Positions 10,227 to 29,453 of a stretch of DNA of 64,000 bases are shown here, piece by piece. The stretch spans positions 1,558 through 65,557 of the forward strand of contig CP175956.1 of NCBI GenBank assembly GCA_046116545.1, in the 5' to 3' direction. The notes beneath the pieces are model-generated. The model saw only the letters and a list, made by a program, of their open reading frames with translations. It searched no databases and was not told where the DNA came from. A program made the translations under genes and the position numbers. Position 1 is the first letter of the stretch, and every line of letters begins with the position of its first letter. The DNA is from Candidatus Moraniibacteriota bacterium. Its GTDB lineage: Bacteria > Patescibacteriota > Minisyncoccia > Moranbacterales > GCA-2747515.

Positions 10227-10499
10227 TCGGTTCGAATATGCCCAAATGTCCGACTTGGGGTAAAAGAAAAAATCCCCATTTAAAGGGATTTTCTTAACCG
10301 CTCCCCGACTCGAGTTAGAACTTTTAAGATCCTTACTCTGTAAGGCTTTTCCAGCTATCGATTTGCACATACTCCAACGCGTCCTGAGCAGACGCAAAAA
10401 GTTACAAAAGTGACACAATATTACACATAAAGTTACAAACCACTGTAACTTACTATCACTAATTAAGTTTTATAAAAATAGATAATAATCTTGATGTGG

Positions 10500-11414
10500 C
10501 TACTTACCTCTTTTGCATCGAGGTGTACGTTTAGCTATATCTGGGACTCCTGGACCCGGAGATATAATGCTTGTTGATTTGACATTTTTAAGCTCGTCGA
10601 CTAATTTTGCCATTGGAATGCCTGTCTTTTTGTGTTTTTCACAAAGATTCGCTATATCCTCTCCCGACATTGTTGTACCTGAATCAGCCATAACTAGTGT
10701 GGAAGTATGTAGCATGGAATCATCATAATCATCAGATCTTACCATATAATCCAGGAGCTCTTCTGGAGACAATTCGTCTAACAATCCTTGCATGCCTACA
10801 CCCTGAACATGATGAATTCCAATTTTATTTATCTTTCCTTCACCTACTGAAAAAGCGAGGTAGTCCTCATCATGAAACGGAATATGAAACCCATTATAAT
10901 TAATTCTTACATTACCATCCACTTTCATCTGAAAATGATAATGTGGTTCCTTGCCTGTTTTTCTGTCGTGGTGTCCATGATAGTCTGATTTCGCACAAGA
11001 AAATGACCATTCTATATTTTTATATTTTATGGTAGTTTCAACTTTTTTATTTGATGATTTCTCCTCAACTAAATCATTAATGTTTTTCATTGGATCTTCC
11101 GCATTTGCTACCCAACGGAGATATGCGTCTATTCTGTGAAAGCTATATTTTTCATATAGCAAAGGAAAATATTTTTTCTTAAAACCTTTTGTTTTGAGAA
11201 ACCAATGCAAACAGGGCTTTTTTACACTAAAATGAGAAAGTTTATATCCACAAATGCTACAATCTCCAGACTTAAGAGCATTCTCCAATTCCAAAAAATC
11301 CTTCTCAGCTTTTGTAATCTCTTTATCATTTTTTTCTCTAATTTCCTCATCACTCATGCTATCTAAAAAATTATTGAGTGCTGCATTTCTTCTTTCTGCT
11401 TCAATCCAATCCAT
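10500..11414 (-). CDS. Hypothetical His/Cys-rich (putative Zn-binding) protein; last gene of a five-gene operon
   Basis: 304 aa. Contains a CSICGYKLSHFSVKKPCLHWF Zn-finger-like motif and His clusters (HGHHDRK, PHYHF, IGIHHVQG). Confidence 0.45.
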   Translation of the reverse strand: MDWIEAERRNAALNNFLDSMSDEEIREKNDKEITKAEKDFLELENALKSGDCSICGYKLSHFSVKKPCLHWFLKTKGFKKKYFPLLYEKYSFHRIDAYLRWVANAEDPMKNINDLVEEKSSNKKVETTIKYKNIEWSFSCAKSDYHGHHDRKTGKEPHYHFQMKVDGNVRINYNGFHIPFHDEDYLAFSVGEGKINKIGIHHVQGVGMQGLLDELSPEELLDYMVRSDDYDDSMLHTSTLVMADSGTTMSGEDIANLCEKHKKTGIPMAKLVDELKNVKSTSIISPGPGVPDIAKRTPRCKRGK

Positions 11415-11432: not shown

Positions 11433-11984
11433 CTACTTACCAAATATTTCAAAAATGAAACAACCTAATGACAAAATAAATACTAAAACACAAATCCATG
11501 ATGAAATAGTGAAGAACATCAAACCTTTTTTATTTTGCAATTTCTCATTAATCTTTTGAATTTTTTCATCACCTTTCTTTGCACTTCCATAAACTTCAAC
11601 ACCACTCAAAATCAATGTTCCAAAAAAATCTGCAAAATTATTATTTTGCAAAAAATCTTTATTAGAAAAATTCGTCAGCACATCTAAATAAAAATCATTT
11701 TTAATATTATTTACATCTTGCGACAATTCTTTGAATAAACGAATTCTCTTTCTCTCTATTCGAATGATCAAAAACAACAATAAAAGCGATATAATAATAA
11801 CAGAAATAAATCCAATCAATCCCCATTTAACATAACCTGATACGACAAATTCTCCATTGAAAACAAAAACACCAAGTATTGCAGCAGAAATGACTGCCAT
11901 ACTTTTAAATAATTCTCTCTCCTGCTTGATGTTATCACTTTCCAAATCAAATATATGATTTAAGTTTTCTTTCTCACTTCTCAT
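11433..11984 (-). CDS. Hypothetical membrane protein
   Basis: 183 aa with 2-3 predicted TM segments. It starts 19 nt after the stop of the upstream gene. Confidence 0.45.
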   Translation of the reverse strand: MRSEKENLNHIFDLESDNIKQERELFKSMAVISAAILGVFVFNGEFVVSGYVKWGLIGFISVIIISLLLLFLIIRIERKRIRLFKELSQDVNNIKNDFYLDVLTNFSNKDFLQNNNFADFFGTLILSGVEVYGSAKKGDEKIQKINEKLQNKKGLMFFTISSWICVLVFILSLGCFIFEIFGK

Positions 11985-12004: not shown

Positions 12005-13069
12005 TTATTTCCTTTCCCTTTTCAATAGTTCAACAACATCATCTTCACCCTCATAACCTCTTAGTCTCCCTTGTAAAATTCCCATTCTATATGTGATTCC
12101 ATCACTCATCAATCGCCAATTTGTTTTCTTGAGATCTTTCTGAATAATTTTTGTTAATTCCATTCTACTATCAAACTCTTCTCGATCTTTTTTATTGTCC
12201 TGCACTGTAAATGGAATGACTACATTCCGTCCAATCTCTGGCGAAAGAAAATTAAGGTGACCATAATTATTCTTTTTTATTATATCCTTTACCAGTTTCT
12301 CTAATTCAGATACCTTTAATCTTTGTATTTTTTCTACTGCATCATAAATGTCTTTTTGATTCTTTCTTTCCTCGATATCTTTTGATAACTCTTTCCAAGA
12401 TTCCATATCTCTCAAAAACTCTTCTCCATCAGATGCTGATACACAACATTCTGCACGGAGTCTTTCAAATTCTTTTTCCTCTTCTTTTTCTTCTTTTTTT
12501 TCTGAAAGATCTATTTCAATATTTTCCTCATGTCCACACTGTAAACATTTATGTGTTGATTTCAATAATGATTGATTACTATCATCATCTATAACAGTAA
12601 CAGCTCCATTACATTCTATGCATCTAGGATCATATTTCCACAAAGCCCCATCTTCCCAATAGGACTGTCTTTTTTTACACGCATCACACACAAGTAAAAA
12701 TAGGACGGATCTGGTGCCATCTTTTTTATTCATCAGATCTCGTGATTCTTCTTTTAAATTTCTGTTACTACAATCAATACAGGACACATTTGGGATAACG
12801 GTATTCAACAAACGATCATCGCTGTCTTTATCTTTTTCCATCCATTTTGTAATTGTATTATTTCTTCTACCAGCTCTTTCCAATTTCATAATCTCAATCA
12901 ATACCCAGTATGCACGTTTTAATTCCTTATCTTTTTTCTTATCATTTGTTTTTTTAATAGATCTGTATGTATCTGCAATCGACAAACATTCATCTATTGT
13001 TTGTTTATCATATAGTTTTTCGTAATAGGATCGATCTTGCAGATATATAATCATAATCACATTTAGCAA
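12005..13069 (-). CDS. Hypothetical protein with two CxxC...CxxC zinc-ribbon motifs and an acidic coiled-coil
   Basis: 354 aa. Zinc-ribbon motifs CIDC...CDAC and CIEC...CLQC; a KEEKEEEKE-rich helix. Overlaps the upstream gene by 7 nt. Confidence 0.45.
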   Translation of the reverse strand: MLNVIMIIYLQDRSYYEKLYDKQTIDECLSIADTYRSIKKTNDKKKDKELKRAYWVLIEIMKLERAGRRNNTITKWMEKDKDSDDRLLNTVIPNVSCIDCSNRNLKEESRDLMNKKDGTRSVLFLLVCDACKKRQSYWEDGALWKYDPRCIECNGAVTVIDDDSNQSLLKSTHKCLQCGHEENIEIDLSEKKEEKEEEKEFERLRAECCVSASDGEEFLRDMESWKELSKDIEERKNQKDIYDAVEKIQRLKVSELEKLVKDIIKKNNYGHLNFLSPEIGRNVVIPFTVQDNKKDREEFDSRMELTKIIQKDLKKTNWRLMSDGITYRMGILQGRLRGYEGEDDVVELLKRERK

Positions 13070-13983
13070 TTTGAGACAGATTCATGATTGGATGATGCTT
13101 TTTCTGTAAAAAATGTCATATTTCCATTATTATCAATTTCTACAAAAACATCACCATTACTCCTTGTTGTAAGCGTCTTCCCAAAAAAATAATCTTGACT
13201 TTTTAGAGACTTGTATTTAACTCCTTTCGAATGCTCAGCGTATCTTGTTGAAACATCTGTATCATCTTTTTCCGACTCACTCGCTTTTGATAAAATCACT
13301 ATTTCAACATCACCAGTAAGATTAAAAAGTGTCGTTGGAAAACCTGACTTATGTCCGTGGTGAGGTGCGATTAAAATATCCACACCATCCTGCATTGCAT
13401 TTATAAAATTTTGATCATTTTTTGCTAGCCATTCCCAGCCTTCTGTCTCCAAGTCGCCACCAAATAAAATCTTCTTACCACCATATTTGATAAGACGTAT
13501 CATGCTGGAGTTATTTTTCACTTTTTTTGAAAGTTCTTCATTTTTTAAAATTTCGTCTATTCCAATAGAAAACACATTTTCTGGATCAAAACCCCATAAA
13601 ATAGTTTCTGGATTTTTTCCTCTATACTTCTTATCAATAAGTTCTTTATATTCTTCATGGATATTCTCATCTCTGGGAAACTCCTCATACTCTCTCTTAC
13701 AAACAAGGTATGGCTCTAACGCTTCTTTCACTTTTTTTGCATTTCTGACATGATCATCATCAGGGTGTGTAATATGCAACAGAGACAGAGGATACTGTCT
13801 CCCAAATCTCGTCTCATATGGTTTCATCCCCAGCCAATTCTTATAAGTACCATTGATAAAATCCACAGGACATCCCTTTTCAGAATGACTGCCACAATCA
13901 ACCATCAAACCATTTCCATTAGGGCAAACAGCCAAGCTACATGCCGCATTATTAACATCAAACACTATCAATTTTGTACTCAT
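13063..13983 (-). CDS. ComEC/Rec2-like metallo-beta-lactamase-fold hydrolase (putative nuclease)
   Basis: 306 aa. Motifs LIVFDVNNAACSLAVCPNGNGLMVDCGS, LLHITHPDDDH (HxHxDH-type) and ILIAPHHGHKSG are typical of the ComEC C-terminal MBL domain. Confidence 0.65.
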   Translation of the reverse strand: MSTKLIVFDVNNAACSLAVCPNGNGLMVDCGSHSEKGCPVDFINGTYKNWLGMKPYETRFGRQYPLSLLHITHPDDDHVRNAKKVKEALEPYLVCKREYEEFPRDENIHEEYKELIDKKYRGKNPETILWGFDPENVFSIGIDEILKNEELSKKVKNNSSMIRLIKYGGKKILFGGDLETEGWEWLAKNDQNFINAMQDGVDILIAPHHGHKSGFPTTLFNLTGDVEIVILSKASESEKDDTDVSTRYAEHSKGVKYKSLKSQDYFFGKTLTTRSNGDVFVEIDNNGNMTFFTEKASSNHESVSNC

Positions 13984-13985
13984 AT

Positions 13986-14642
13986 TTATTTATTACTTTT
14001 TAAATTTAATAAAACTGTTTTAAAAACAAGTCCCCTAGCAATTCCACGAGTTCGCCACCAAAATAACAGAAAGATAGACAGATTCACTATAACAAGCACC
14101 CAACTATTACTCAAAAATGCAAAAATAGTCAAAAACAAAAATTCAATCATAATTACACGAGAGAATAAATAATTTCTATTCACCACCCTCATTTCTTCCT
14201 GATCACTTACACTCGAATATAACTTCCAAAAAATATCTTGTGATAATTTATCATCTTCTTTTTGTTTTCGAAAAAATGACAAATCAGAATATTCTTTATC
14301 AAAAATTTTCAACTGATTCTTTGGGAAATCCAAAATATGAATAATCTCACCTCTTTGATAATCACTTTTCAAAATAGGATTCTCCTTGTATAAAAAAATA
14401 TGTGATGGTCTTCTACGCTTAAAAAATATATCAACGACCCATTCAAGCGCATGTGCAACAGTCTGCAATAATTCCCCAACAATAAAAGCTGAACAGAAAA
14501 ATAAAAATGTATACAAAAAATCTAGATCTCCTGCAATATGCACTTGATAATTTTTGGCAAAAAAAAGAAAAATAGCAGCAATAAAAAATCCACCAGGCAT
14601 TACACGTATCAAGAGCTCATCAATTGTAAATTTATTAGTCAT
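13986..14642 (-). CDS. Hypothetical membrane protein (first gene of the five-gene operon)
   Basis: 218 aa with N- and C-terminal TM pairs. Its stop lies 3 nt before the MBL gene start. Confidence 0.45.
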   Translation of the reverse strand: MTNKFTIDELLIRVMPGGFFIAAIFLFFAKNYQVHIAGDLDFLYTFLFFCSAFIVGELLQTVAHALEWVVDIFFKRRRPSHIFLYKENPILKSDYQRGEIIHILDFPKNQLKIFDKEYSDLSFFRKQKEDDKLSQDIFWKLYSSVSDQEEMRVVNRNYLFSRVIMIEFLFLTIFAFLSNSWVLVIVNLSIFLLFWWRTRGIARGLVFKTVLLNLKSNK

Positions 14643-14695
14643 ATTCTGTATTAATATTTTTTATCTCGTGGTAAATGGAGATTATTTATTACTTA

Positions 14696-15316
14696 TTAAC
14701 ATAAATCCCCTGGAAGTGATGTCACTACCACCCCTTGTATCACACAATTTTCTGTTAATATAATTGGTTTATGTTTTTTCTTGCTTGACTTCGGACGAAG
14801 AATGACAACTTCATCAGTTTGTTCAAAAAACTTTACTGTTGCCTCATCATTAATCAATGCAACTACTTTGTCTCCTTTTTCCGCAGTTGACTGCTTACGT
14901 ATAAGTAGTAAATCACCTCCATTTATACCTGCAAGATTCATTGAACTTCCCTTTGCTCGCAAGAGAAAATATTCAAAGCCTTTTTTTGCAAGCTTTGTTG
15001 AAACAGGTATTTTTGCTTGAATGTTCTCTTTAGCAAATATTGGTGTCCCACAAGCAACTGAACCTACTAAAGGAATGTCTATTGTGCTTATGGATTGTAT
15101 TGGCTGTGTATTGGTAAGAATAAGACTTCTGCCATTTTTTTTAATCAAATTTGCCTTAATGAGACGATCCACAACCAAACTTGCAGAACGTGGCGATTTG
15201 CCTCCTGTTATTTCATTAATTTCTCGCAAAGAAGGACTCTCTCCATAATGAACAATCCTATTACGAATTAATGCATATGCCTTTTTGTCTTTGTCACTCA
15301 AGTTATTTTTTATCAT
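14696..15316 (-). CDS. LexA/CI-like S24-family transcriptional repressor (prophage-type repressor)
   Basis: N-terminal wHTH (SLREINEITGGKSPRSASLVVDRLIKANLIKK) and a C-terminal S24 peptidase domain (AKGSSMNLAGINGGDLLLIRKQ...GDKVVALINDEATVKFF). It is divergent from the 15400 gene. The start was set at the MIKNN Met. Confidence 0.75.
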   Translation of the reverse strand: MIKNNLSDKDKKAYALIRNRIVHYGESPSLREINEITGGKSPRSASLVVDRLIKANLIKKNGRSLILTNTQPIQSISTIDIPLVGSVACGTPIFAKENIQAKIPVSTKLAKKGFEYFLLRAKGSSMNLAGINGGDLLLIRKQSTAEKGDKVVALINDEATVKFFEQTDEVVILRPKSSKKKHKPIILTENCVIQGVVVTSLPGDLC

Positions 15317-15399
15317 AGTATAAGAAGTATACACTGCCCTATACAAAATTGCAAGCTTCTGCTAGTATGAACATGAATAAATAATCTTCAAAAAACTTT

Positions 15400-16347
15400 A
15401 TGTCAAAAAAAATTCCACAAACTATTGAAAACCAAATAAACACCTACATTCCACAAATACCAGTTGCTTTAAATTCTACATTACCTGATATCACCCTTTT
15501 CAAAGATGTTCATAAGGATATGCAACTAATGCAAACAGCATTAAAACCACAAATGGATTTGCTGCGTAATACAGCAATACAACTATCCAATACCTCAAAC
15601 ACATTTTTAAAACTTGTTGATTTTTCCTATATCACTAAACAACTTACACAACTTCAAAAAGAAAGTGATCGTATTAAAAAAAATATGCGTATTTTTATCT
15701 CTCCCACTTCTATTATCTATCCTCCCGAACCATCAATAGAATATATAGTAGCGCCTCCTCCACCAATTACACTTTCACGCGAACAAGAAGATCGCATTGC
15801 ACAAAAAACTGCAATTTTATTAAGTGAACAACTCAGCCAAGATCACTCCAAAACTGTGCACTCGCTTCCAGAGCCTTTAATTCAACTACCTGCTAATGCT
15901 GTGTGGGAGAATATAGTGATTTCTTTTGAGACTGAAGATAGTGTTGTAATACACTGTAAAAACATGTATTTAGGTAAATACACCGATCTAGATTTATCTT
16001 TCACAAAAAACAAAAGATGCTCCCAATCTTGGCTCTTACTTTATGCTCTTTCTGCGTATGAAGTCAAAGGAGTTGATAGTATAGCTACAGTAAAAACTCT
16101 TGTAGACTCAGGATTTTTTAACAATTCGGCAATAGTTCATGCTACCAGATCTAATCTTGTAAAACACTTAATGAATACTTTTGGAATTCATGACGATCCT
16201 TTTTACAACTATAAAGAATATGGTGGATATAAACCCAAATTTATTCTAAAACCCCTACCTGACCTGCGTGGAAATGGCAATATTCACACACAATCAGGAA
16301 GTCATGATCTAAGAACCGAGAATTATAATGATGACCATCTTTACTAA
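15400..16347 (+). CDS. Hypothetical protein (divergent from the repressor; first gene of the phage-like rightward module)
   Basis: 315-aa ORF followed by an intrinsic terminator at 16348-16377. Confidence 0.45.
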   Translation: MSKKIPQTIENQINTYIPQIPVALNSTLPDITLFKDVHKDMQLMQTALKPQMDLLRNTAIQLSNTSNTFLKLVDFSYITKQLTQLQKESDRIKKNMRIFISPTSIIYPPEPSIEYIVAPPPPITLSREQEDRIAQKTAILLSEQLSQDHSKTVHSLPEPLIQLPANAVWENIVISFETEDSVVIHCKNMYLGKYTDLDLSFTKNKRCSQSWLLLYALSAYEVKGVDSIATVKTLVDSGFFNNSAIVHATRSNLVKHLMNTFGIHDDPFYNYKEYGGYKPKFILKPLPDLRGNGNIHTQSGSHDLRTENYNDDHLY

Positions 16348-16377
16348 AGCTCACTAAAAATTTAGTGAGCTTTTTTA
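16348..16377 (+). terminator. Rho-independent terminator
   Basis: Hairpin AGCTCACTAAAAATTTAGTGAGCT followed by TTTTTT. Confidence 0.6.
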
Positions 16378-16477
16378 TTAGTTCAAGTCATATAAATCCC
16401 TTTATTATGGGATTTTTTTCATTTCACTAAAATTTTAGTATATAGAGTGAAGACTTATTAAATATTAAAACAACCAT

Positions 16478-17764
16478 ATGTCTCAACAACAATTGGTCTG
16501 GTGCACCACAAAGCGCCGTGTTGATGAACTTGTACCTCAAGAGATCAATCCACGTACAATTTCTGACAAGCAAATGTCAGATCTAAAAAAGTCATTGAGG
16601 AAATATAACTTGGTCGAAATTCCTGTTGTGGATTTGGATAACAAAATACTTGCAGGACACCAAAGACTCCTTGCACTAAAAATCCTAGGGCGAGGGACTG
16701 AAACAATTGATGTACGTATTCCTAATCGTGCACTTACTAAAAAAGAATCTGAGCAATATCTCATCGCTAGTAATAAACTTGGTGGCGACTGGGACTACGA
16801 CTTACTCAAACACTTTGATTTAGATATCCTATCAGATGCAGGATTTGATGATATGGAACTTGTCTCGTTTTGGGACAAAGATAATGAATCTATCGATGAT
16901 GATTTTGAAACAACAAAGGAACTAAATAAGATTCATTCCCCTGTCACAAAACGTGGTGACCTTATCATTATGGGAAAACACAAACTTCTTTGTGCAAGTG
17001 CAACTGATCCTGATGCAGTAAAAAATCTTTTTGGAAAAGATAAAGTTGCAATGTATTATAGCGACCCACCTTACAATATTGCTCTTGACTATAACAAAGG
17101 TGTTGGCAATAAAGCAAACTATGGTGGTGATGTTGATGATGATAAATCACCTAAAGACTACAAATTATTTATAAAACAAGCACTAGAAAATGCTATTTCA
17201 GTATCACAAAAAGATCTACACATTTTCATGTGGTGTGATGAAGCTTGGGTATGGGTATTTCAAACTCTCTACAATGACCTTGGTATAAGAAATCGTAGAT
17301 TGAATGTGTGGTTAAAAAATAATGCATCTCCCTGCCCTGATGTCGCATTTAATAAGGTACTTGAATATTGTTGTTATGGCACACTAGGAAAGCCATTTCT
17401 TTCAAAAAACCTTACAAATCTCAATGAAGTAATGAATAGGGATGCTGGTACAGGCAATGACCTACATGATTATGTTACAAATGTCTGGGCAGTAAAACGA
17501 CTAGCTGGTAATAAATATAGTCATCCGACAGAAAAAAATCCTGAACTTCATGAAAAAGCAATTAAACGATGTACAAAACCTGGTGATATTATTTTTGATT
17601 CCTTTTCTGGATCAGCTAGTACCATGATTTGTGCACATCAGCTTGATCGTATTGTATACGCAACAGAGACTTCCGAGGTCTTCTGTGATTTAGCGATTCA
17701 AAGATACGAGAAGCTTACAGGAGATAAAGTAAAAATTATAAAAAAATTCTATGAAGAAAAATAA
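16478..17764 (+). CDS. ParB-like nuclease domain fused to a DNA N6-adenine/N4-cytosine methyltransferase (phage-type DNA modification methylase)
   Basis: 428 aa. The N-terminal ParB/Srx-like region is KILAGHQRLLALKILG. The methyltransferase motif IV is SDPPYN and motif I is FDSFSGSAST (beta-class order IV...I). Confidence 0.75.
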   Translation: MSQQQLVWCTTKRRVDELVPQEINPRTISDKQMSDLKKSLRKYNLVEIPVVDLDNKILAGHQRLLALKILGRGTETIDVRIPNRALTKKESEQYLIASNKLGGDWDYDLLKHFDLDILSDAGFDDMELVSFWDKDNESIDDDFETTKELNKIHSPVTKRGDLIIMGKHKLLCASATDPDAVKNLFGKDKVAMYYSDPPYNIALDYNKGVGNKANYGGDVDDDKSPKDYKLFIKQALENAISVSQKDLHIFMWCDEAWVWVFQTLYNDLGIRNRRLNVWLKNNASPCPDVAFNKVLEYCCYGTLGKPFLSKNLTNLNEVMNRDAGTGNDLHDYVTNVWAVKRLAGNKYSHPTEKNPELHEKAIKRCTKPGDIIFDSFSGSASTMICAHQLDRIVYATETSEVFCDLAIQRYEKLTGDKVKIIKKFYEEK

Positions 17765-18173
17765 ATTAACAAAGCAATTTCTTGAAGAGTTGCGCAAGGT
17801 GCCAATTGTACAAGTTGCTTGTGAAAAAACTGGAATTTCACGCAATAGTGTTTATCGCTGGCGACGTGAAGATAAAAAATTTGCGACACAAATGGATGAA
17901 GCTCTCTCTGATGGTGTTGCCTTCGTAAATGATATGTCAGAAAGCCAACTACTTACCATGATCAAAGAAAAAAATTGGTCAGCAATTAGTTTTTGGTTAA
18001 GACATCGTAATGACAATTACAAAAACAAAGTAGAAATTACTACAAAGGAAGATGTTGAAGAGCTAACACCTTCTCAACAAAAGATTGTGAAGCAAGCTCT
18101 AAAACTTGCATCGCTTAATAAAACTAACTCTATAAATAATTTAAAGAAAAGATATGACAAAAAGAAAAACTAA
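17751..18173 (+). CDS. Phage terminase small subunit (HTH-containing)
   Basis: 140 aa. HTH VACEKTGISRNSVYRWRRE. It overlaps the upstream methylase gene by 14 nt and terL by 20 nt. Confidence 0.55.
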   Translation: MKKNKLTKQFLEELRKVPIVQVACEKTGISRNSVYRWRREDKKFATQMDEALSDGVAFVNDMSESQLLTMIKEKNWSAISFWLRHRNDNYKNKVEITTKEDVEELTPSQQKIVKQALKLASLNKTNSINNLKKRYDKKKN

Positions 18174-19695
18174 TTCAGTGTTACCCACAGCACTGATAAA
18201 CAAAATGATGAAAGACCGTGCAGTACGTACAAGTATTACGAAAGATAGCTTTATGTATTTCTTTCACTTTTACTATGCACATTATGTAAAATATCCAACA
18301 GCCGACTTTCAAAAAGAAATCATGCACCATCTTGAGACAAGTGCAACGGAAAATTTGTATGTGGTTGCTTTTCGTGGATCAGGTAAATCAACAGTTGTAA
18401 CAACTGCTTACCCTATTTGGGCAATACTTGGTAAACAACAAAAAAAGTTTTGTATGATCTTTACACAAACACAGGCACAAGCAAAACAGCACATGATGAA
18501 TATTCGCACGGAGCTTGAAGGTAATGAACTTCTCAAAAGAGACCTTGGACCATTTCAAGAAGAAAGTGATGAATGGGGTTCTCATTCGTTAGTTTTTAAA
18601 AAACACGGTGCACGCATTACAGTTGCTTCTACGGAGCAAAGTATTCGTGGTATCCGTCACAACGAACATCGACCTGATCTTTTTATTTGTGATGATGTTG
18701 AAGACGTACAATCAACTAAAACACGTGAGAGTCGAAATAAAACATATAACTGGTTGCGTGGCGAGGTTGTTCCTGCAGGTGATCGTAATACGAGACTTAT
18801 TATCGTTGGAAATCTACTACATGAAGATTCCCTACTAATGAGAATTAAAGATGAGGTTTCACAAGATAAGGCCGATGGCATATTTAAGTCCTATCCCCTC
18901 CTCGATGACAAGGAACATTGCATATGGCCAGGAAAGTATCCTGATGCTAAAGCATTGGAGAAAGAAAAAAAGAGTGTTGCAAGTGAATTATCTTGGCAAC
19001 GTGAATACCTCTTACGCATTATACCAAGTGATGATCAAGTTATTTATCCAGAATGGCTTCAGTACTATGATGAATTGCCTGGTGAAGATCACAAAGGTTA
19101 CCGTGCAACATATGCGGGAGTAGATCTTGCAATTTCCACAAAGGATTCTGCGGATGATACTGCCATTGTATTTGCTCACATCTATTCTCGATCAGACAAC
19201 CTAAGAATCTACATTCTACCAAATCCTATTGTAAAAAAGATTACATTTCCAGAACAAGTTGATCTTATGAAAGATATTACAAATACTCATCTTTCAGGTG
19301 AAGGTAGTAAGTTATTTGTTGAAAGTGTTGCCTACCAAGAGGCACTACCTCAAATGCTTGAGCATCAAGGAATTAATGCAACAGCCATTAAACCTAAGGG
19401 CGACAAGCGAACACGCCTTGCACTTACATCAACAGCAATAAAATCTGGGATTATTAAGTTTCCACGTAAAGGTTGTAAAAGATTAATTGAACAACTTGTT
19501 GGTTTTGGTGTAGAAAAACATGATGATCTAGCTGATGCATTTTCATTACTCATCAATGCAACAATGGACGAACATTCCAATGAAGGTACTATTCTTCTGT
19601 TTTGGTTAGGTAGTGATGATGACGACGATACACTCTACTGTAGCGACTACGTCGATATGGACAAAAATTGCGATAGAAAGGGTCGACCATTGTAA
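18154..19695 (+). CDS. Phage terminase large subunit (ATPase plus RNaseH-like nuclease)
   Basis: 513 aa. Walker A is FRGSGKST and Walker B is LFICDDVED. Acidic nuclease motifs are GVDLAIS..DDTAIV and HDDLADAF. Confidence 0.8.
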   Translation: MTKRKTNSVLPTALINKMMKDRAVRTSITKDSFMYFFHFYYAHYVKYPTADFQKEIMHHLETSATENLYVVAFRGSGKSTVVTTAYPIWAILGKQQKKFCMIFTQTQAQAKQHMMNIRTELEGNELLKRDLGPFQEESDEWGSHSLVFKKHGARITVASTEQSIRGIRHNEHRPDLFICDDVEDVQSTKTRESRNKTYNWLRGEVVPAGDRNTRLIIVGNLLHEDSLLMRIKDEVSQDKADGIFKSYPLLDDKEHCIWPGKYPDAKALEKEKKSVASELSWQREYLLRIIPSDDQVIYPEWLQYYDELPGEDHKGYRATYAGVDLAISTKDSADDTAIVFAHIYSRSDNLRIYILPNPIVKKITFPEQVDLMKDITNTHLSGEGSKLFVESVAYQEALPQMLEHQGINATAIKPKGDKRTRLALTSTAIKSGIIKFPRKGCKRLIEQLVGFGVEKHDDLADAFSLLINATMDEHSNEGTILLFWLGSDDDDDTLYCSDYVDMDKNCDRKGRPL

Positions 19696-19777
19696 CGCAG
19701 TTCATGTATTTTGCATAGACTTAGCAAAACATACATTCTCTGTCATTAATAGATATATAACAATTTATTAATGATGT

Positions 19778-21076
19778 ATGACGACACAAGAATTATCAAC
19801 AGAAAATATTCGCTATTGCCTATATGCTCGTAAGTCAACTGAATCTGATGAAAAACAAGCTTTATCGATTGAGTCACAAATTAAAGAAATGCTTGCAATT
19901 GCAGAACGTGAAAATCTTAATGTCATTGATATTAGACGTGAATCGCATTCTGCAAAAGATTCTGGGACACGTCCAGTATTTAAAGAACTTTTAGAAGATA
20001 TTCAAAGAGGTCGATATACTGGAATAATAACATGGGCACCTGATCGATTATCTCGTAATGCTGGTGACTTAGGATCTATTGTAGATCTCATGGATGAACA
20101 GAAATTAGCAGAGATTCGTACTTATGGTCAAACATTTAGAAACTCTCCAAATGAAAAATTTCTTTTGATGATTCTTTGTAGTCAAGCAAAGCTTGAAAAT
20201 GACAATAAAAGCATTAATGTCAAACGAGGCTTACGAGCAAAGGTGGAAATGGGCTTATGGCCATCTGTGGCACCTACTGGATATCTAAATATTAAAGAAA
20301 TTGATAAGAAGGGACATGTAAAAATTGATTCTGAACGTGGTCCTATTATAAAAAAAATATTTGAAAAAGTTGCCTATGAAAAGTGGTCTGGAAGGAAGGT
20401 CTATAATTGGTTAAGATTTGAACTTAACTTCAAAACAGCAGCAGGTAACAAAAATTTATCTTTAAGTAATATATATCTTGTACTTCAAAACACTTTCTAC
20501 TATGGTACTTTTGAATATCCTCGTGGAAGTGGTAACTGGTATAAAGGAAAGCATAAGCCTATCATCACCAAAGAGCTATTTGATCAAGTACAAGAGCAAG
20601 TCAAAAGCCAAGCACTTACAGCTCGAAAATCAAAAGAATTTGCATTTACCAAAATTATGATATGTGGACAATGTGGCTCAGGCATATCAGCTGATGAGAA
20701 ATTTAAAAAACTTGCAAGTGGTGATGTTAAAAGATATGTATATTACCTATGTGCAAAATCAAAAGATGTTAATTGCAAAGGGTGTTACACCGAAGAAAAA
20801 GCTCTAATTCAAGAATTTAAAAAACTTGTCGATACAATTGGCATTAATGAAAAAGTTATGCGGGAGAAAATTAAAAAAGAGGTAACTCGAATTAAAAAAT
20901 TTCAACAATCTTTACTTAATATTGAGCAAGATATAAAAATTAGTGAAATTGATATTAAGAACTATGCAAAATTTATATTAAATGACGGTGATCTTTATGA
21001 AAAACGAGAATTACTTGATTGCTTTCAGGGTAAATTAGTATTAAAAGATAAAAAATTAACATTACAAAAAATATGA
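19778..21076 (+). CDS. Large serine recombinase/integrase
   Basis: 432 aa. The resolvase catalytic domain is YARKSTESDEKQ...RLSRN, followed by a recombinase domain and a zinc ribbon (CGQCGSG...C..C). Confidence 0.8.
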   Translation: MTTQELSTENIRYCLYARKSTESDEKQALSIESQIKEMLAIAERENLNVIDIRRESHSAKDSGTRPVFKELLEDIQRGRYTGIITWAPDRLSRNAGDLGSIVDLMDEQKLAEIRTYGQTFRNSPNEKFLLMILCSQAKLENDNKSINVKRGLRAKVEMGLWPSVAPTGYLNIKEIDKKGHVKIDSERGPIIKKIFEKVAYEKWSGRKVYNWLRFELNFKTAAGNKNLSLSNIYLVLQNTFYYGTFEYPRGSGNWYKGKHKPIITKELFDQVQEQVKSQALTARKSKEFAFTKIMICGQCGSGISADEKFKKLASGDVKRYVYYLCAKSKDVNCKGCYTEEKALIQEFKKLVDTIGINEKVMREKIKKEVTRIKKFQQSLLNIEQDIKISEIDIKNYAKFILNDGDLYEKRELLDCFQGKLVLKDKKLTLQKI

Positions 21077-21334
21077 GACCACCCTAAAAATAACTGACAC
21101 ACCCGTATTGAAAAAGTTCTTTTAAAAGTGTATAGTAAAGATACAATTTGAAAAACAGGCCCAACCGCCAATTATGGTGAGTGGTCTGAAAATCCAACCA
21201 AAGCAGTAAACTCCTCGTGAGGATGCCTTTGGTTGGTCATATCTAGGAATAGATATGGAGTCAGAAATGGCTCACCTTGCGGGGAGCTTTTTGTATCTCC
21301 CGCAATTATAATTAACCTAATGCAAATAACGCGT

Positions 21335-22276
21335 ATGAAAAATATACCAAAACCAACACTAATCACTATTGTAATAGCAATATTGCTATTTGTTATCATG
21401 CCAAAAGATGACTTTTTTATGCTGTGGCTGCTTATATTCTTATTTTCATTTTTAATCAGCTGGTTGGCACCTAAAATATTTTATCCTATTTTTGCACACA
21501 AACTATCAAAAGGACTATTGAGAACGGTACTTGGCTTATTGACAGTAGCCTGTTTTGTATTATTTGGAATAACAACAAATATGATTACAGATAATGAACA
21601 AAAAATTAAAAAAGATACTGCCAATATTGCAAGTCAAAAGTCGGAGACACTAATTACAAAAGCTGAAAGTTACATCAATGATAATAATATAGAACAAGCA
21701 ACAGTTGTATTATTAGAAGCTAAAAAATTAGATCCTCGCAATAGCAATGTATCAACTCTCCAAAGAGATATTAATAGACTGCAAGATTCTGATGAAATCA
21801 AAAAAATACTAACAAAAATGTCTGATGATGATTTTAATTTACTAATAGACAACAAATTACTTACGGAATTTCTTGTCAATAAAAAATTAAATGAATTATT
21901 TATTAAAGAATTACAAAATGATGGGAATGCAAGAAAAGATTATGTAATTGAAGCTGAACAAAAAAGAAAAGAGGCTGAAAAAGAGAATCAAGAGAAGGCT
22001 GATGAGGAAGAAAGGCTAAAACGAGAATCAACCCTAGAAAGTCAATTCAGTGCATGGGATGGATCACATAGAAACCTTTCGCGTATGATTAAAGATTCCA
22101 TGAATGATCCAAAAAGTTATGATCATGTGGAAACTAGATATTTTGATATGGAAGATCATCTAGTTGTAATCACTACATTTAGAGGATCAAATGCATTTGG
22201 TGCACTTATAAAAAATACTGTCAAAGCAAAAGTGTCACTAGAAGGTGATGTACTCGAAATCATTGAACAATTTTAA
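21335..22276 (+). CDS. Hypothetical membrane-anchored coiled-coil protein
   Basis: The start was re-set to the ATG at 21335 (MKNIPKPTLITIVIAILLF...). The tracked ORF has a non-coding-looking N-terminal extension over a structured region. Confidence 0.45.
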   Translation: MKNIPKPTLITIVIAILLFVIMPKDDFFMLWLLIFLFSFLISWLAPKIFYPIFAHKLSKGLLRTVLGLLTVACFVLFGITTNMITDNEQKIKKDTANIASQKSETLITKAESYINDNNIEQATVVLLEAKKLDPRNSNVSTLQRDINRLQDSDEIKKILTKMSDDDFNLLIDNKLLTEFLVNKKLNELFIKELQNDGNARKDYVIEAEQKRKEAEKENQEKADEEERLKRESTLESQFSAWDGSHRNLSRMIKDSMNDPKSYDHVETRYFDMEDHLVVITTFRGSNAFGALIKNTVKAKVSLEGDVLEIIEQF

Positions 22277-22372: not shown

Positions 22373-23488
22373 TTATACATCAATTTTTTTAACATACTTT
22401 TCAAAAACTGGTTGCATTTTTATTAAACCATCTAGTAAAAATGTAATTATCTCAGCATGATCTTCTGTACTATAAACACTTACTTCATTATTTTGTCGTT
22501 TAATTCGTGAAGTAACTTTGTCTTCCATACGTTCCCATTCCAACTCCAACCCAATCTCTCGCTCTATTTCCTCCTTATATGATTCAAATGCATCAAATAT
22601 TTTTTTATTTTCTTCCTTTTTTCCACGATTAATATAAACCTCGTAGCGTGCATATTTCCCAGACACTACAAGACTCATTGATACACCGGACTTTCCTAGT
22701 CCTACAGGAATCCACATTTCAGTTCTTGCTGTTAAATTTTCTGTTAGATGTTTAGTTTGCTCCGTTTTACTTGATGATTCCAGAAATTTTGACCAAAAAG
22801 ATTTTATTTTTTCTTGCCTAGAGCCACGAACCCTCTGACTCAATGTTTCTTTCTTTTGCTTTTCTGCAATCTTAATCATAAATTCTTCTGCATCTTCAAG
22901 TGGAATAATCTGTTTAAAGTCAATAATATAATCTTCTTTGAGTTTATATGGTGTAGCCTTAAAGCACACAATGTCTATCCCATTATTTAAAAGCCACATT
23001 ACAGTCGATGTAACTTCTTTTCTATAGCTACCTGAAACTAAAATCATTCTTTGTGAATAACCTATATTAACTTTTTCAGCATATTCTTCACCATCAAAAA
23101 ATTCTGCTAACATATCCCTTGCACTCTCTTCACAATTTATATCTTCAAGATAATCAGCATATATCATTTCGATATCCTCAATCGATAAACTTGAACAATA
23201 CGACACATATTTCAATGCTTGCCATGTAACGTCTTTTCCCGTGCTATCCAGCTTATTTTCAATAATCACTAAATTACCAGATTTATCTAAGGCTAACAAG
23301 TCCAACCTTTCTTTTGTCTCATCAAATCCTGCAAATTCTTTTTGAATAATTAAGAGTTCTTCTCCAAGGCATGATGGATTTTTTGCTATCCACTCTTGTA
23401 AATTCTTTCGTTCCTTAAATCCAGCCTCTGAAAAAGTTACTGGCGATATTTCATTTAGATCATTATTACTTTTATCTATTATGTACAT
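22373..23488 (-). CDS. PD-(D/E)xK nuclease-fold protein with a C-terminal uncharacterised domain (possibly DUF4268-like), adjacent to the R-M system
   Basis: 371 aa. The N-terminal motif is LDLLALDKSGNLVIIENKLD (D...ExK). Confidence 0.45.
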   Translation of the reverse strand: MYIIDKSNNDLNEISPVTFSEAGFKERKNLQEWIAKNPSCLGEELLIIQKEFAGFDETKERLDLLALDKSGNLVIIENKLDSTGKDVTWQALKYVSYCSSLSIEDIEMIYADYLEDINCEESARDMLAEFFDGEEYAEKVNIGYSQRMILVSGSYRKEVTSTVMWLLNNGIDIVCFKATPYKLKEDYIIDFKQIIPLEDAEEFMIKIAEKQKKETLSQRVRGSRQEKIKSFWSKFLESSSKTEQTKHLTENLTARTEMWIPVGLGKSGVSMSLVVSGKYARYEVYINRGKKEENKKIFDAFESYKEEIEREIGLELEWERMEDKVTSRIKRQNNEVSVYSTEDHAEIITFLLDGLIKMQPVFEKYVKKIDV

Positions 23489-23545: not shown

Positions 23546-24226
23546 TTAACTTAATATAGCAAATAATTGTGCCATGGTTGGGTGATTTTTATCATAAAAA
23601 TATTCCAACTGCCCTTTTCCATTATCTATTTTTCTCATTAAGAATTCTTTGCTCTCATCTGGTTTTTCTCTTAAATCACAAGTTCTGTCTAGACTTAGCA
23701 ATATATCTATATTTGAATATTCCTCTTTCCCACCGTTTTCATCTTTCAAATAATAAATAACTCCTGTAGAATTATCTATCTCCCAATGAAACCTTTTTAA
23801 AACTGTTTTATGTTTTAGATCAACTTTATATGCAAATAAAATAAATTTCATTTTATCATTCACATGCTTCATTCCTTTTATTCTTGCTATGTCTTTGTCA
23901 TATTTTTTTAAATCACCTCCCGTAGCATTGCTTTTTATTTCAATAACAAATAATACATCTCTTATATCCACTATTTCTTGATTTCCAATTTTTCTAGTTG
24001 GAGCATTGGCATCCAATAAAATACAATCACATTGAGGACTTTGCTTTCCATTTTCATCAACAATAACACCATTGATTGCTCTGTATCTCGGCAATCTTTT
24101 AATAATAACTTCTTTCAGAAAATCCTCCCTAACTTCTCCTCTTGTAAGTTTATGTTCTATAGTTTCTGAAACTTCATATTGAGCTATTAATAAATTTTGT
24201 ATATATTCATCATATTTTCTAAGCAT
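23546..24226 (-). CDS. PD-(D/E)xK restriction-endonuclease-like protein
   Basis: 226 aa. Motif QCDCILLDANAP...VLFVIEIKSNA (D...ExK). Confidence 0.45.
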   Translation of the reverse strand: MLRKYDEYIQNLLIAQYEVSETIEHKLTRGEVREDFLKEVIIKRLPRYRAINGVIVDENGKQSPQCDCILLDANAPTRKIGNQEIVDIRDVLFVIEIKSNATGGDLKKYDKDIARIKGMKHVNDKMKFILFAYKVDLKHKTVLKRFHWEIDNSTGVIYYLKDENGGKEEYSNIDILLSLDRTCDLREKPDESKEFLMRKIDNGKGQLEYFYDKNHPTMAQLFAILS

Positions 24227-24239: not shown

Positions 24240-26717
24240 TTATTGTCCCCAAACTTCAGAGATTTTAGTTTTTAGTTTTTGTTCAAAAATTTCAATGAGT
24301 TTTTTATTTGCATCAACTATTTTTTGTTCTATTTCAATGTCTTCTATAATTTTTTCTTGTATTTTCATTGGAGCTAAAGGAAATTTTAATGTTTTTAAAA
24401 TTCTACCATTGAGCACTGGCATTGTTACACCTCCAGCTTTTTGATTAAGTTGAGAAAAAATCAAATCACTTTGAAAATATTTTTGAAAAAATATCGGCAT
24501 CATTTTTTCTTCATCTAATGTAATTTTTATTAAGCGAGGATTTATAATACCCTTCTCAAATACAGGCGGAACAATAACTATTTTTCCTATAGTTCCAACA
24601 AGGCTAATTAAGATGTCATCAGTCTTTATTTTACAGCTCTCTAATTCTCTAAATTTTTCCTCATCAATATAATAATTGCCGTATGTAAAATCATTCTTAA
24701 TTACGTGTTCTTGTCCATAAATTTTATAACCACTTTTTACATAAAATTCTTTTTTAAGAGAGGATCCAAAAGGTCCTGCTTTCATGGAATGCTTCTTATC
24801 TGATAATAATTTTTCTAGTTCCACCATTTCCCAATCTGGATCAATTTTTATATTTGGTTTCCAGTTTTCTACAACCTGTTTTGCTCCGTCGATAACTTTT
24901 TGATAACCGTCTAATTCTTTGACAATTTGTTTTTGAATTTCAAGAGGTGGAAGTGGGATTTTAATTTTTGCATATTGTGATATCCAATACCTTTTATGAG
25001 TAGAAGAGTTAAAATCTATATTTTTCATCATTAAAAATATAAAATCAATACTAGATAATGTTTTATCTTTTATTTTTAATATTTTCATGGCTGATGATTT
25101 AACCTTAAACGGAAAATCAACAAACTTTGTTGCAGTAGTAAAATCATCAAATATAATAACTGGAAGGTGATCTTCTGAGAAAATTCCATCATTTTCATCT
25201 GTATATCCAAGTAAAAAACTCTTACCAGCAGTTAAAACTGGTATTTTATAATTTTTATTATAGTTAGTTGAGCTAACTATATAATTAGTTGGTTGTTCGT
25301 AATCTAAAACATCTCCCAACTCCACCATCTCCCACTTAACATTAGAATAATCTACAACTTCCCTATATCTATCTCCTATCAGATTATAATCTCCACTTTC
25401 TACGATTTTTGTTTTTTTAATTGCAAAAGCAATAGTTTGATTTTTCTTTACTTTCTGATTCCCTTTCCATTCTCTCAAAATCTCTAAAGCTAATGGTAAA
25501 TCATTTTTATCTGGAGTTTCTCGCCTCTGCGCTCCTAAATCAAAACCATCTTGATTAATTTTTAAAAATAAAATTTCTTTATTCTTTTTTGTAATATCTT
25601 TGTCAAAAAGTAATATTGAGGTCTTTACTCCAGAATAAGGATTAAAAACCCCGGACGGCAATGACACTACTGCATAGAGCCCATCCTCTACCAAATCTTT
25701 ACGGAGTGCTTTATAAGCATTTGCTGATTGAAAAACAACTCCTTCAGGCACGATGATTCCCGCCCGACCTTTTAAACTAAGATGTTCCAAAATATAATCA
25801 ACAAAAAGAACCTCTGCTCTCTTTGCCTTTGATTTAAATTTTGAATGTGGCTCAATCCCACCTTTTGGTGTCATGAATGGCGGGTTGGCTAAAATTACAT
25901 CAAATTCCTCATCCCAATGTTCCGTTTTTGAAATCGTATCATAAACCTTAATATCTGGATTTTTGAACTTATGTAAATATGTATTTACTTTTGCAGTTTT
26001 TACCATATTTGGGTCAATATCGTACCCTGTGATATTTTTATGAATTTTTGACCTTTCTGAAGCTGTTAACGGGGTTTCTTTACCTGTTGGCTTTCCTGTT
26101 TTGTTATCAATGCCATCATGAGCTTCTATAATATGTTTATAGGCAGAAATTAAAAAACCTGCAGTCCCACAGGCTGGGTCTAAAATCCTATCATCTTTTT
26201 TAGGGTCAATAGCCCTTACAATAAAATCAATGATATGTCGTGGTGTTCTAAACTGTCCTGCATCTCCTTGCGACCCCATAATACTGAGCAGATATTCATA
26301 GGCATTTCCAAGCTCTTCCGAATTGTCGTAATCAAACTGGTTTATTTCTGACAAAAATAATCCTAAAATTCGAGGGTCATTAAACGGTAAATATGTATTC
26401 CTAAAAATTGACCTGAAGAGTTCTGGGATTTTTTCACTTTCTGATATTTTTTTAGTTGCTTCTTGATAACGATTTAATTTATCTTGATTTGTCAGTCTCG
26501 TATCCATTAAATTGTGCCAAGAATACTCTTTCAACTCACCCACGAAAAAACTACCTTTTCCATTTGGTAATCTCCTTGCTTCTTCATCCATATCATCCAT
26601 AAATTTATAAATGAGAGCAATGGTTATTTGTTCCACTTGTTGCATTGGATTTGGCAATACTCCTACCAATACTTGTCTTGCCCCATCTATCCTTCTTTTT
26701 GCTTCTGATGTTAACAT
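24240..26717 (-). CDS. hsdM: Type I restriction-modification HsdM-HsdS fusion (N6-adenine methyltransferase plus two target-recognition domains)
   Basis: 825 aa. HsdM motifs are QFRTPRHIIDFIV, DPACGTAGFL (motif I) and LANPPF (motif IV). Two target-recognition-domain repeats each start WEMVELGDVL/WEMVELEKLL, with conserved HsdS blocks PLPPLEIQKQIV and PLAPMKIQEKII. Confidence 0.8.
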   Translation of the reverse strand: MLTSEAKRRIDGARQVLVGVLPNPMQQVEQITIALIYKFMDDMDEEARRLPNGKGSFFVGELKEYSWHNLMDTRLTNQDKLNRYQEATKKISESEKIPELFRSIFRNTYLPFNDPRILGLFLSEINQFDYDNSEELGNAYEYLLSIMGSQGDAGQFRTPRHIIDFIVRAIDPKKDDRILDPACGTAGFLISAYKHIIEAHDGIDNKTGKPTGKETPLTASERSKIHKNITGYDIDPNMVKTAKVNTYLHKFKNPDIKVYDTISKTEHWDEEFDVILANPPFMTPKGGIEPHSKFKSKAKRAEVLFVDYILEHLSLKGRAGIIVPEGVVFQSANAYKALRKDLVEDGLYAVVSLPSGVFNPYSGVKTSILLFDKDITKKNKEILFLKINQDGFDLGAQRRETPDKNDLPLALEILREWKGNQKVKKNQTIAFAIKKTKIVESGDYNLIGDRYREVVDYSNVKWEMVELGDVLDYEQPTNYIVSSTNYNKNYKIPVLTAGKSFLLGYTDENDGIFSEDHLPVIIFDDFTTATKFVDFPFKVKSSAMKILKIKDKTLSSIDFIFLMMKNIDFNSSTHKRYWISQYAKIKIPLPPLEIQKQIVKELDGYQKVIDGAKQVVENWKPNIKIDPDWEMVELEKLLSDKKHSMKAGPFGSSLKKEFYVKSGYKIYGQEHVIKNDFTYGNYYIDEEKFRELESCKIKTDDILISLVGTIGKIVIVPPVFEKGIINPRLIKITLDEEKMMPIFFQKYFQSDLIFSQLNQKAGGVTMPVLNGRILKTLKFPLAPMKIQEKIIEDIEIEQKIVDANKKLIEIFEQKLKTKISEVWGQ

Positions 26718-26721
26718 AATT

Positions 26722-29244: not shown

Positions 29245-29378
29245 ATACCACTAATTTATATCAATATTCCCATTGTACTCCTCTATTCAAAAAAATTCCA
29301 GGATTTACATGAACTTTAATACAAAAAAAACTACTTTATAAAAGTAGTCTTTCGTATGCTAGTCGTGCTAGCACAAGA

Positions 29379-29453
29379 TGGCTCCGAGAGTCGGATTCGA
29401 ACCGACGACCAATTGGTTAACAGCCAACTGCTCTACCGCTGAGCTACCTCGGA
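29379..29453 (-). tRNA. tRNA-Asn (anticodon GTT), CCA encoded
   Basis: Manual cloverleaf: acceptor TCCGAGG/TCTCGGA, D-arm GCTC-AGCGGTA-GAGC, anticodon loop CTGTTAA, T-arm GTCGG-TTCGAAT-CCGAC, 3' end GCCA. A terminator hairpin follows at 29328-29355. Confidence 0.85.

Follow-up and report, generated by a model that had tools for sequence, protein, structure and literature searches.

Capsid-less tRNA islands carrying their own terminase and a serine integrase: candidate phage satellites of Patescibacteria

Why should a bacterial chromosome carry the genes that package phage DNA without those for any capsid into which to package it? The question is raised by a stretch of 64,000 nucleotides (hereafter the window) from Candidatus Moraniibacteriota bacterium (contig CP175956.1), in which a LexA/CI-type repressor, a ParB-methyltransferase, a small and a large terminase (TerS and TerL) and a large serine recombinase (SR) stand in phage-like order. 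The initial annotation of this stretch offered two answers, a prophage remnant that had lost its structural module, or a satellite resembling the phage-inducible chromosomal islands (PICIs) that keeps only packaging and integration functions. The second is the one favoured by the analysis presented here: we read the locus, with confidence slightly better than even, as a helper-dependent phage satellite with its own terminase, an island of roughly 19 kb extending from about 10300 to about 29400 at a tRNA-Asn gene of the window. The same core order, S24 repressor (minus strand), small variable gene, methyltransferase, TerS, TerL, zero to seven cargo genes, SR and further cargo, is found in at least 80 species-level Patescibacteria genomes, and this island family most likely represents the first candidate phage satellites of Patescibacteria.

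The six genes named initially lie at the coordinates they had been given, with profile scores far beyond chance. The S24 repressor gene (14696..15346, minus strand; its true start is probably the ATG at 15316) matches Peptidase_S24 at 5.4e-25 and, weakly, the LexA_DNA_bind winged helix (Pfam); with a DNA-binding domain, an Ala-Gly cleavage site (VACG) and a Ser-Lys dyad (the Ser of GSSM and a Lys downstream) all present, the protein is, as read from its sequence, a self-cleaving repressor of the LexA/CI type. It faces a divergent early gene (15400..16347, plus strand) located in the variable slot of the family, the 315-aa product of which is an ORFan that retrieved only itself among 5.8 billion proteins and has no Pfam or PHROG family and no PDB match. 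The packaging operon follows on the plus strand. Its first gene (16478..17764) encodes a ParB/Srx-like N-terminal domain fused to an N6/N4 DNA methyltransferase (MTase) with GHQR and DPPY motifs (N6_N4_Mtase, 8e-24; PHROG 498, 5e-78 across the whole protein; ParB-like PHROG 620, 4e-24 for residues 11-148); it overlaps by 14 nt the gene for TerS (17751..18173; PHROG 4044, 1.9e-10; PHROG 4102, 1.1e-6), a small terminase with an N-terminal helix-turn-helix, which itself overlaps by 20 nt the gene for TerL (18154..19695; PHROG 38, 7e-79). A concern raised at the outset, that the two terminases might lack terminase motifs on profile search, is answered by these PHROG matches. TerL is intact, and 15 relatives share without any change its Walker A (GSGKST) and Walker B motifs and the Asp residues of its nuclease; its scores against Pfam Terminase_6N and 6C fall slightly under the curated cut-offs. 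SR (19778..21076, plus strand) combines a Resolvase domain (PF00239, 2.6e-21), a Recombinase domain (PF07508, 2.7e-13) and a Zn_ribbon_recom domain (PF13408, 3.4e-5; 24.6 bits, curated cut-off 25.3) with a YARKS catalytic serine motif and Cys clusters; a catalytic domain with its nucleophilic Ser, a recombinase domain and a zinc ribbon together give it the make-up of a large serine recombinase. Neither the island nor the larger open reading frames (ORFs) of the 64-kb window (about 35 scanned with Pfam, PHROG and PADLOC) include a portal, capsid, tail or lysis gene, and the absence first noted beside the terminase thus extends to the whole window; outside the island, these larger ORFs are defence, housekeeping or cell-envelope genes or have no family match.

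Is this layout peculiar to one genome? One genome per species (GTDB representatives) was surveyed; 188 of them hold a close relative of TerL, 80 loci were read, and ORFs were called and clustered in 83 related loci (L-numbers below designate related loci or contigs). TerL is present in 83 of these loci, the ParB-MTase in 78 of 83, SR and TerS in 66 each and S24 in 53, the ParB-MTase directly preceding TerS. The slot after S24 holds unrelated genes from one element to another (clusters c5, c9 and c39); c5, a small protein of about 138 aa without a match in a profile search against PDB, occurs in 32 loci, every other non-core cluster is confined to 15 loci at most, and only the five core genes and c5 are conserved family-wide, the unannotated genes varying between islands. 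Conservation is highest in TerL and TerS (median identity of 76% and 75%, respectively, to those of the window); TerL is split in just two of the 83 loci and is 75-85% identical to more than 100 protein clusters, of which all those with a taxon name belong to Patescibacteria. Between the window and its sister element L097, whose TerL is 98% identical, the ratio of nonsynonymous to synonymous substitution (dN/dS) is 0.036 for TerL, 0.023 for TerS, 0.022 for SR and 0.10 for the MTase; by this measure the core genes are under strong purifying selection. The two elements are also mosaic, since their left arms share 80% and their right arms 92% nucleotide identity. Their immunity regions (window 14648-16519, L097 6667-8366) are unrelated, with S24 on the minus strand and the 315-aa ORFan in one, and DUF2188 on the minus strand, S24 on the plus strand and a 152-aa gene in the other. 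In one metagenome-assembled genome (MAG) with two copies of the island, the two have in common only the genes at the left end and the segment that begins with the MTase and closes with SR.

The origin of the packaging module can be traced further. The initial annotation had advised a search for the nearest phage family of TerL. Deposited phage TerL sequences are at most 27% identical; five IMG/VR phage contigs (L094, L096, L108, L110 and L113) encode TerL proteins 36-46% identical to that of the window. In all five, a portal fused to a head-morphogenesis domain comes directly after TerL. L096 has a homologous MTase-TerS-TerL order that is continued by a protease, a major head protein, an adaptor and a tail protein; L113 likewise has a protease and a major head protein, with an MTase upstream of TerL. 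When all the proteins of the 83 loci were compared by BLAST with phage portal, protease, capsid, adaptor and tail proteins, two marginal short matches were the only result, and no portal, capsid, tail or lysis gene is present in the ten other islands that could be delimited. Since the 83 island loci are devoid of proteins like these structural ones, the islands hold, judging from these comparisons, a phage-derived packaging module that stops precisely where, in the phages, TerL meets the portal. For Paceibacteria, temperate prophages some 44 kb long are reported from MAGs, among which is nzgw467, the source of L018 (PMC12455944). One locus stands apart: in L104 (4616-11155; ENA contig k141_42068), a gene for an HNH endonuclease (115 aa) is found upstream of the MTase-TerS-TerL operon, the left-end gene c8 described below directly adjoins S24 at the island end, and there is no SR in the approximately 4.6 kb available past TerL. 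An HNH gene beside a terminase usually accompanies cos-type packaging. Because L104 has such a gene upstream of its terminase operon, the family may include differing packaging strategies.

Where does the island begin and end? Homology with L097 starts exactly at the candidate left end (attL; 10300..10321, GCTCCCCGACTCGAGTTAGAAC) and its onset is sharp, the two sequences being unrelated to the left of 10300; this supports the left boundary near 10.3 kb that was proposed initially. The right boundary had been placed at about 21.1-21.3 kb, which is too early: the island runs on through defence genes to tRNA-Asn(GTT) (29379..29453, minus strand), the likely integration target, whose 3' end points toward the island. 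The right end (attR region, 29330..29402) comprises the terminator hairpin of the tRNA, the palindrome GTGCTAGCAC (29365-29374) and the 3' end of tRNA-Asn. At the same tRNA-Asn/rpoD/dnaG site, a related island with other cargo is found in L001, which is more distantly related. Flanking attachment repeats, which the initial annotation had proposed to look for, were sought by comparing the tRNA-Asn region with the left 16.5 kb; no exact match of 12 nt or more and no local alignment rose above shuffled controls. Read by eye without a formal test, GCTCCCCGACTCGAGTTAGAAC matches the 3' part of tRNA-Asn (29381-29402) at 16 of 22 positions. As there is no long exact direct repeat in the window, the left att site is put forward as a candidate only.

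The related islands make the integration at tRNA genes plain. In 28 related loci and in the window, the tRNA gene encountered first when going rightward from TerL lies on the minus strand with its 3' end toward the island, and in no locus is this first tRNA on the plus strand; in the related loci it is a Gln, Glu, Asn, Ser, His, Trp or Lys tRNA, and at least five tRNA species serve as targets. Six islands (L004, L011, L014, L043, L044 and L072) lie between direct repeats of 15-29 nt, which take in the 3' end of the tRNA; in L068 a repeat of 17 nt stops 21 nt before the tRNA, and L002, L009 and L035 have repeat pairs of just 12-14 nt. Ten islands are thereby delimited, with lengths of 12.2-18.8 kb. 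In L004, L011, L014 and L044 the tRNA 3' end is adjoined by a palindrome of 16 bp (CTCGTGCTAGCACGAG or a near variant), of which GTGCTAGCAC is the partial copy in the window. SR is the sole recombinase found in the window island; no tyrosine recombinase was found there or in the ten other delimited elements, and a hidden tyrosine integrase was rejected on this ground. SR relatedness and tRNA target agree in 16 of 28 cases, when chance alone would give 3.5; in the tRNA-Glu islands the SRs are each other's closest relatives in five cases out of five, the TerL proteins in two out of five. In four islands the tRNA is a tRNA-Ser with the odd anticodon ACT according to ARAGORN (L034 19264-19351, L038 18869-18958, L048 11551-11640 and L072 17188-17277), adjoined by a tRNA-Ser(GCT) in L034, L048 and L072; the ACT call may be a genuine tRNA or an artefact of the integration junction. 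Outside the left island end of L097 (about 2150-2200), the sequence CCACTCCGAGAGTCAGACTTACC resembles by eye the 3' half of tRNA-Asn, ARAGORN calling no tRNA there; it may be the remnant of an earlier tRNA-Asn integration.

The remainder of the island is cargo, carried on both arms. From the left end, the minus strand encodes a Cys/His-rich protein of 304 aa (10500..11414), which lies within the block shared with L097 at 80% nucleotide identity and has no match in Pfam, PHROG or PADLOC; a protein of 183 aa (11433..11984), probably membrane-bound from the hydrophobic stretches seen by eye and without a family match; the zinc-ribbon protein c8 (12005..13069), recurrent near the left end of the family; a metallo-beta-lactamase-fold protein (13063..13983; Lactamase_B 1.1e-6), which is a PDC-M48B-like candidate defence gene (PADLOC, 7.3e-23); and a further, probably membrane, protein of 218 aa (13986..14642), again with hydrophobic stretches by eye and no family match. 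The c8 gene sits to the left of the repressor in 13 related loci and its product has conserved Cys pairs; all the named ones among its 329 homologs are from Patescibacteria, and some lie outside islands. Its AlphaFold model (pLDDT 90) matched no solved PDB fold, and a profile search against PDB sequences gave zinc-ribbon noise only. The right arm encodes, also on the minus strand, a PDC-S11 candidate defence protein (22373..23488; PADLOC 1.5e-136), nuclease-like with a Pfam DUF4268 match, and a NucC-like/PD-(D/E)xK nuclease (23546..24226; DUF6602, Pfam/PADLOC), followed by a type I restriction-modification (RM) system (24240..29244, minus strand), with a fused HsdM-HsdS (24240-26717) and HsdR (26722-29244). 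In other islands the cargo slots hold type I and type III RM systems, cyclic oligonucleotide-based anti-phage signalling systems (CBASS), Thoeris, reverse transcriptases, SNase nucleases, PDC candidates and proteins resembling superinfection exclusion (Sie) factors; most of the annotatable non-core genes are defence genes.

How might these genes be controlled? The initial annotation had pointed out an imperfect palindrome upstream of SR at 19703-19736 as a candidate att site. The palindrome exists, its limits being 19705..19735 with a conserved core at 19711-19730 (TTGCATAGACTTAGCAAAAC), but it is not the att site: the core travels with the SR gene in the integrated state, and an intact site beside SR in that state cannot be the attP of this integration. 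A TTAGCA(A/G)A motif is found upstream of 41 of 67 SR genes, whether TerL, the LOOT RNA described below or cargo comes before, and in most loci the TTGCATAGACTTAGCAAAAC core and a downstream CTGTCATTAAT box precede SR regardless of the upstream content; the palindrome with TTGCATAGACTTAGCAAAAC therefore looks like the promoter/operator region of SR. A terminator scan located two terminator-like hairpins (16346..16373 and 16394..16415, plus strand) that part the early gene from the packaging operon. Their place is taken, in at least 15 related loci, by a different, conserved hairpin of 22 bp with G-U pairs and a U tract, which lies between c5 and the MTase just after a conserved TAGAAT-containing box, GCGTAGTAAAAAGTAGAATAG (L011 8192-8304, L014 8174-8286, L042 8169-8283 and 12 further loci); no Rfam family reached the gathering threshold in this region of L011, L019 and L042. 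This 22-bp hairpin looks like a promoter-proximal terminator and a possible target of anti-termination, an arrangement which suggests late expression under anti-termination. The initial annotation had also taken the module for a single transcript. The gene overlaps on which this was based are real within the packaging operon, but since the hairpins separate the early gene from MTase-TerS-TerL, the module is probably not one transcript from the repressor region on.

An RNA element adjoins the integrase. Downstream of SR, Rfam identifies a LOOT RNA (RF03000; 21158..21273, plus strand) at 67.9 bits for a gathering score of 46.4, preceded by a promoter-like site (21108-21136; promoter match 10/12) and located 5' of gene X (21320..22276, plus strand). 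The latter encodes a probable membrane protein with a hydrophobic N terminus, a charged helical middle and a C-terminal PHROG 3403 domain. What had been seen as a host-like membrane protein is thus a conserved slot of the element with the LOOT RNA before it: gene X shares 45% identity with its counterpart in this slot of L001, and elsewhere the slot holds DUF4352, SNase nuclease or other proteins, several of which look membrane-bound or secreted. LOOT was detected with Rfam in four of seven related loci scanned (70.5-85.7 bits), and a covariance model built from the Rfam-detected copies recovered it in 44 of 90 sequences (among them the window; L002 12273-12397, minus strand; L019 13006-13122; L023 12992-13115; L042 12161-12284, minus strand; and 38 other related sequences) and had no match in the true phages searched. 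Its place is nearly always downstream of TerL, at a distance of a few kb at most, and usually adjoining SR, in two main layouts in which SR, LOOT and X either point the same way in this order or X and LOOT point away from SR on its upstream side; the gene beside LOOT shares its orientation in all but a few loci. In an alignment that was fitted to the model and so favours the structure, 89.8% of cells are paired, 24 of 28 pairs have changed on both sides, and the covariation score is 0.74 compared with 0.23 for shuffles and at most 0.11 for slid controls. Helix 3 (10 bp; columns 99-112 with 149-160 of alignment A3, about 21203-21212 with 21236-21245 in the window) has three G-U pairs in approximately 420 cells, whereas its neighbours have many; this near-exclusive Watson-Crick pattern would be compatible, too, with a symmetric site in double-stranded DNA, such as the adjacent SR might bind. 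Rfam classifies LOOT as a small RNA; its position fits a 5' leader better than a free-standing small RNA. To our knowledge, LOOT had been known only from environmental sequences.

How would such an island work as a satellite? Because a LexA-like self-cleaving repressor faces the divergent early gene, the switch would probably be released by DNA damage or by a signal from a helper phage. We infer that SR excises the island from the 3' end of tRNA-Asn, since the island has no other recombinase and the relatedness of SRs follows the tRNA that they target. The ParB-MTase/TerS/TerL operon, because it sits behind terminators, would probably be expressed late, thanks to read-through or to a factor from the helper; the island's own DNA would be recognised by TerS and pumped by TerL into the procapsids of a co-resident tailed phage. 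The likely helper lineage has an MTase-TerS-TerL module akin to that of the island, with a portal after it and, in some members, a protease and a capsid gene as well. As long as it is integrated, the island provides the cell with the defence genes in the variable slots of both arms and with the LOOT-led membrane-protein gene beside the integrase.

Several observations weigh against this scheme. No helper phage was identified, and the nearest true-phage TerL proteins are those, only 36-46% identical, of the IMG/VR contigs. No replication module (primase, helicase or initiator) was recognised in the ORFs of the window island with Pfam, PHROGs or PADLOC, and none is family-conserved. The common cores at the tRNA 3' ends of related islands (12-29 nt) are longer than usual for large serine recombinases, repeats of up to 29 nt at tRNA ends being more typical of tyrosine integrases. 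The metagenome scan returned no match either to an empty site, with the left flank joined to tRNA-Asn, or to the attP junction of an excised circle, with the right-end palindrome joined to the left terminus, and none of 27 short contigs had the terminal overlap of a circle. The window copy itself, with its by-eye match in place of a long attL/attR repeat, may be fixed in place, and the saturation of synonymous sites between the window and L001, which occupy the same tRNA-Asn/rpoD site, also fits a long vertical residence.

Because of this saturated divergence at a shared site, one rival stays alive that we regard as unlikely and as the most serious of all: the MTase-TerS-TerL module would have been domesticated, kept by the host largely by vertical descent in the manner of a gene transfer agent or a lateral-transduction platform, and would package adjacent chromosomal DNA, defence islands included, into capsids whose genes lie in another part of the genome or in any resident phage. 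The unrecognised replication module agrees with it, as do the position of the cargo downstream in the direction of the terS-terL operon and the conservation of TerL and TerS, which equals or exceeds that of housekeeping proteins (identity to L001 is 81% for TerL, 85% for RpoD and 65% for DnaG; to L026 it is 77%, 71% and 41%, respectively). Against it, the islands occupy many different tRNA genes between flanking direct repeats, two copies occur in several MAGs, and cores and SR modules are mosaic; an integrase and an SOS-type repressor speak for an autonomous element, and the 64-kb window holds no capsid genes. A bolder reading, to which we give rather little weight, makes MTase-TerS-TerL no phage parasite but a packaging engine that Patescibacteria keep for themselves, as conserved as their core housekeeping genes, and that moves adjacent defence islands between the cells of these genome-reduced episymbionts in borrowed or host-encoded capsids, with SR and LOOT as a cassette-exchange hotspot more than a mere integrase; the near-exclusive Watson-Crick covariation of one LOOT helix would thereby be explained. 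The cargo, overwhelmingly made of defence genes, could suggest instead an integrative defence island whose terminase is mainly an anti-phage weapon, mis-packaging or cutting the DNA of invaders or titrating their portals, rather than a means of transfer. Staphylococcus aureus pathogenicity islands (SaPIs) and the PICI-like elements (PLEs) of Vibrio cholerae do interfere with helper packaging through their own packaging proteins, yet in known satellites interference is compatible with self-packaging, and a strongly constrained TerS, TerL and ParB-MTase operon together with an integrase and att sites fits self-transfer better; the weapon alone is decidedly unlikely.

The remnant envisaged by the initial annotation, a complete temperate phage that lost its genes from portal to lysis and of which the remainder is decaying, is very improbable. 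Its gene order is indeed phage-like, its packaging module has phage relatives and the window copy is without a clean attL/attR repeat; however, the same capsid-less architecture in at least 80 species-level genomes contradicts it for the family, the core genes are all intact with dN/dS between 0.02 and 0.10, six islands retain att repeats of 15-29 nt, and independent deletions would not repeatedly join TerL to the same SR and LOOT cassette. As the capsid-less layout recurs in order, chance deletion cannot be its origin. Least probable of all is a complete but unrecognisable virus with its capsid genes among the unannotated ORFs: many island ORFs are without a family match and the fold of c8 has none in PDB, but beyond the five core genes and c5 nothing is conserved family-wide, the unannotated genes differ from island to island, the islands are 12-19 kb in size and the annotatable non-core genes are mostly for defence.

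Some other features of the window lie outside the island. Positions 1-761 are repeated at 35246-36000 (76-94% identity) within an ORF on the minus strand (35039-36046), and the repeat may extend past the window edge; the two stretches are probably paralogous genes. To the left of the island, an intergenic unit is repeated between small minus-strand genes (3143-3306, 6255-6418, 7822-7984, 9121-9213 and 10136-10304; 66-87% identical), the last copy ending approximately at the island start; by eye, it includes minus-strand promoter-like hexamers and a short hairpin. Could the small genes at 5.9-10.2 kb (minus strand) be hidden structural genes? This was rejected, as they have no PHROG or Pfam match and no relatives in related loci and lie outside the block shared with L097. 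Finally, twelve tandem copies of a 12-nt unit (32415-32612) are found at the 5' end of rpoD (31317-32597, minus strand), where they would give the sigma factor a charged, repetitive extension at its N terminus.

No description of this island family was found in the literature searched. In a survey published in 2025 on Patescibacteria MAGs, 'prophages' and genomic islands are reported but terminases, recombinases, tRNAs and satellites go unmentioned (PMC12455944), and a 2025 preprint states that satellites of Candidate Phyla Radiation (CPR) phages are unknown (bioRxiv 10.1101/2025.02.15.638363). If the islands are satellites, they would add a third layer to a nested parasitism of satellite, phage, epibiont and host, they would combine a full terminase with a lack of capsid genes and of recognised replication genes, a combination not recorded for the known satellite families, and they would be a main vehicle of defence systems (RM, CBASS, Thoeris and reverse transcriptases) in genomes of about 1 Mb. 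The orphan LOOT RNA can now be assigned to a host phylum and to a constant genomic neighbourhood, the islands furnish serine integrases whose att sites can be read at tRNA genes, and TerL, 75-85% identical over many lineages, provides a marker for finding such islands in metagenomes.

The island can be compared with several known systems. The temperate tailed phages represented by L096 and L113 have a homologous MTase-TerS-TerL module in the same order, but there TerL leads into the portal (and in some into protease, major capsid, adaptor and tail genes), whereas in the islands it leads into SR and cargo; as its terminase is not adjoined by portal, capsid, tail or lysis genes, the island is not an intact temperate prophage. 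Nor is it a capsid-forming PICI (cf-PICI). These elements also encode both TerS and TerL, but they make their own capsid protein, portal, protease and head-tail connectors and borrow only tails; the island is not one of them because it has no capsid genes. The PLEs of V. cholerae are described as satellites with a large serine recombinase as integrase (PMC6002521). They share with the island this integrase and the absence of capsid genes, and are strongly anti-phage; compared by description, they differ in having their own replication initiator, no TerL, a repeat element rather than a tRNA as target and a helper-dependent excision. Tycheposons and the marine virion-encapsidated integrative elements (VEIMEs) are likewise tRNA-targeting integrative elements of streamlined genomes with variable cargo, some of them satellite-like; they mostly use tyrosine recombinases and often carry replication genes, and we know of none described with an MTase-TerS-TerL-serine recombinase core. 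It is a PICI that the island works most like, even though it has, unlike PICIs, P4 and PLEs, no recognised primase or replication module. It also departs from PICIs in its serine rather than tyrosine integrase, located after the packaging genes and not at the repressor end, in its own TerL and ParB-methyltransferase, in its LexA-type self-cleaving repressor, in its LOOT cassette and in its Patescibacteria host. The resemblance to PICIs such as SaPIs lies in the overall plan: 12-19 kb integrated at a fixed site, a master repressor facing a divergent early gene, a small terminase of its own, no genes for virions or lysis, and accessory genes from which the host profits.

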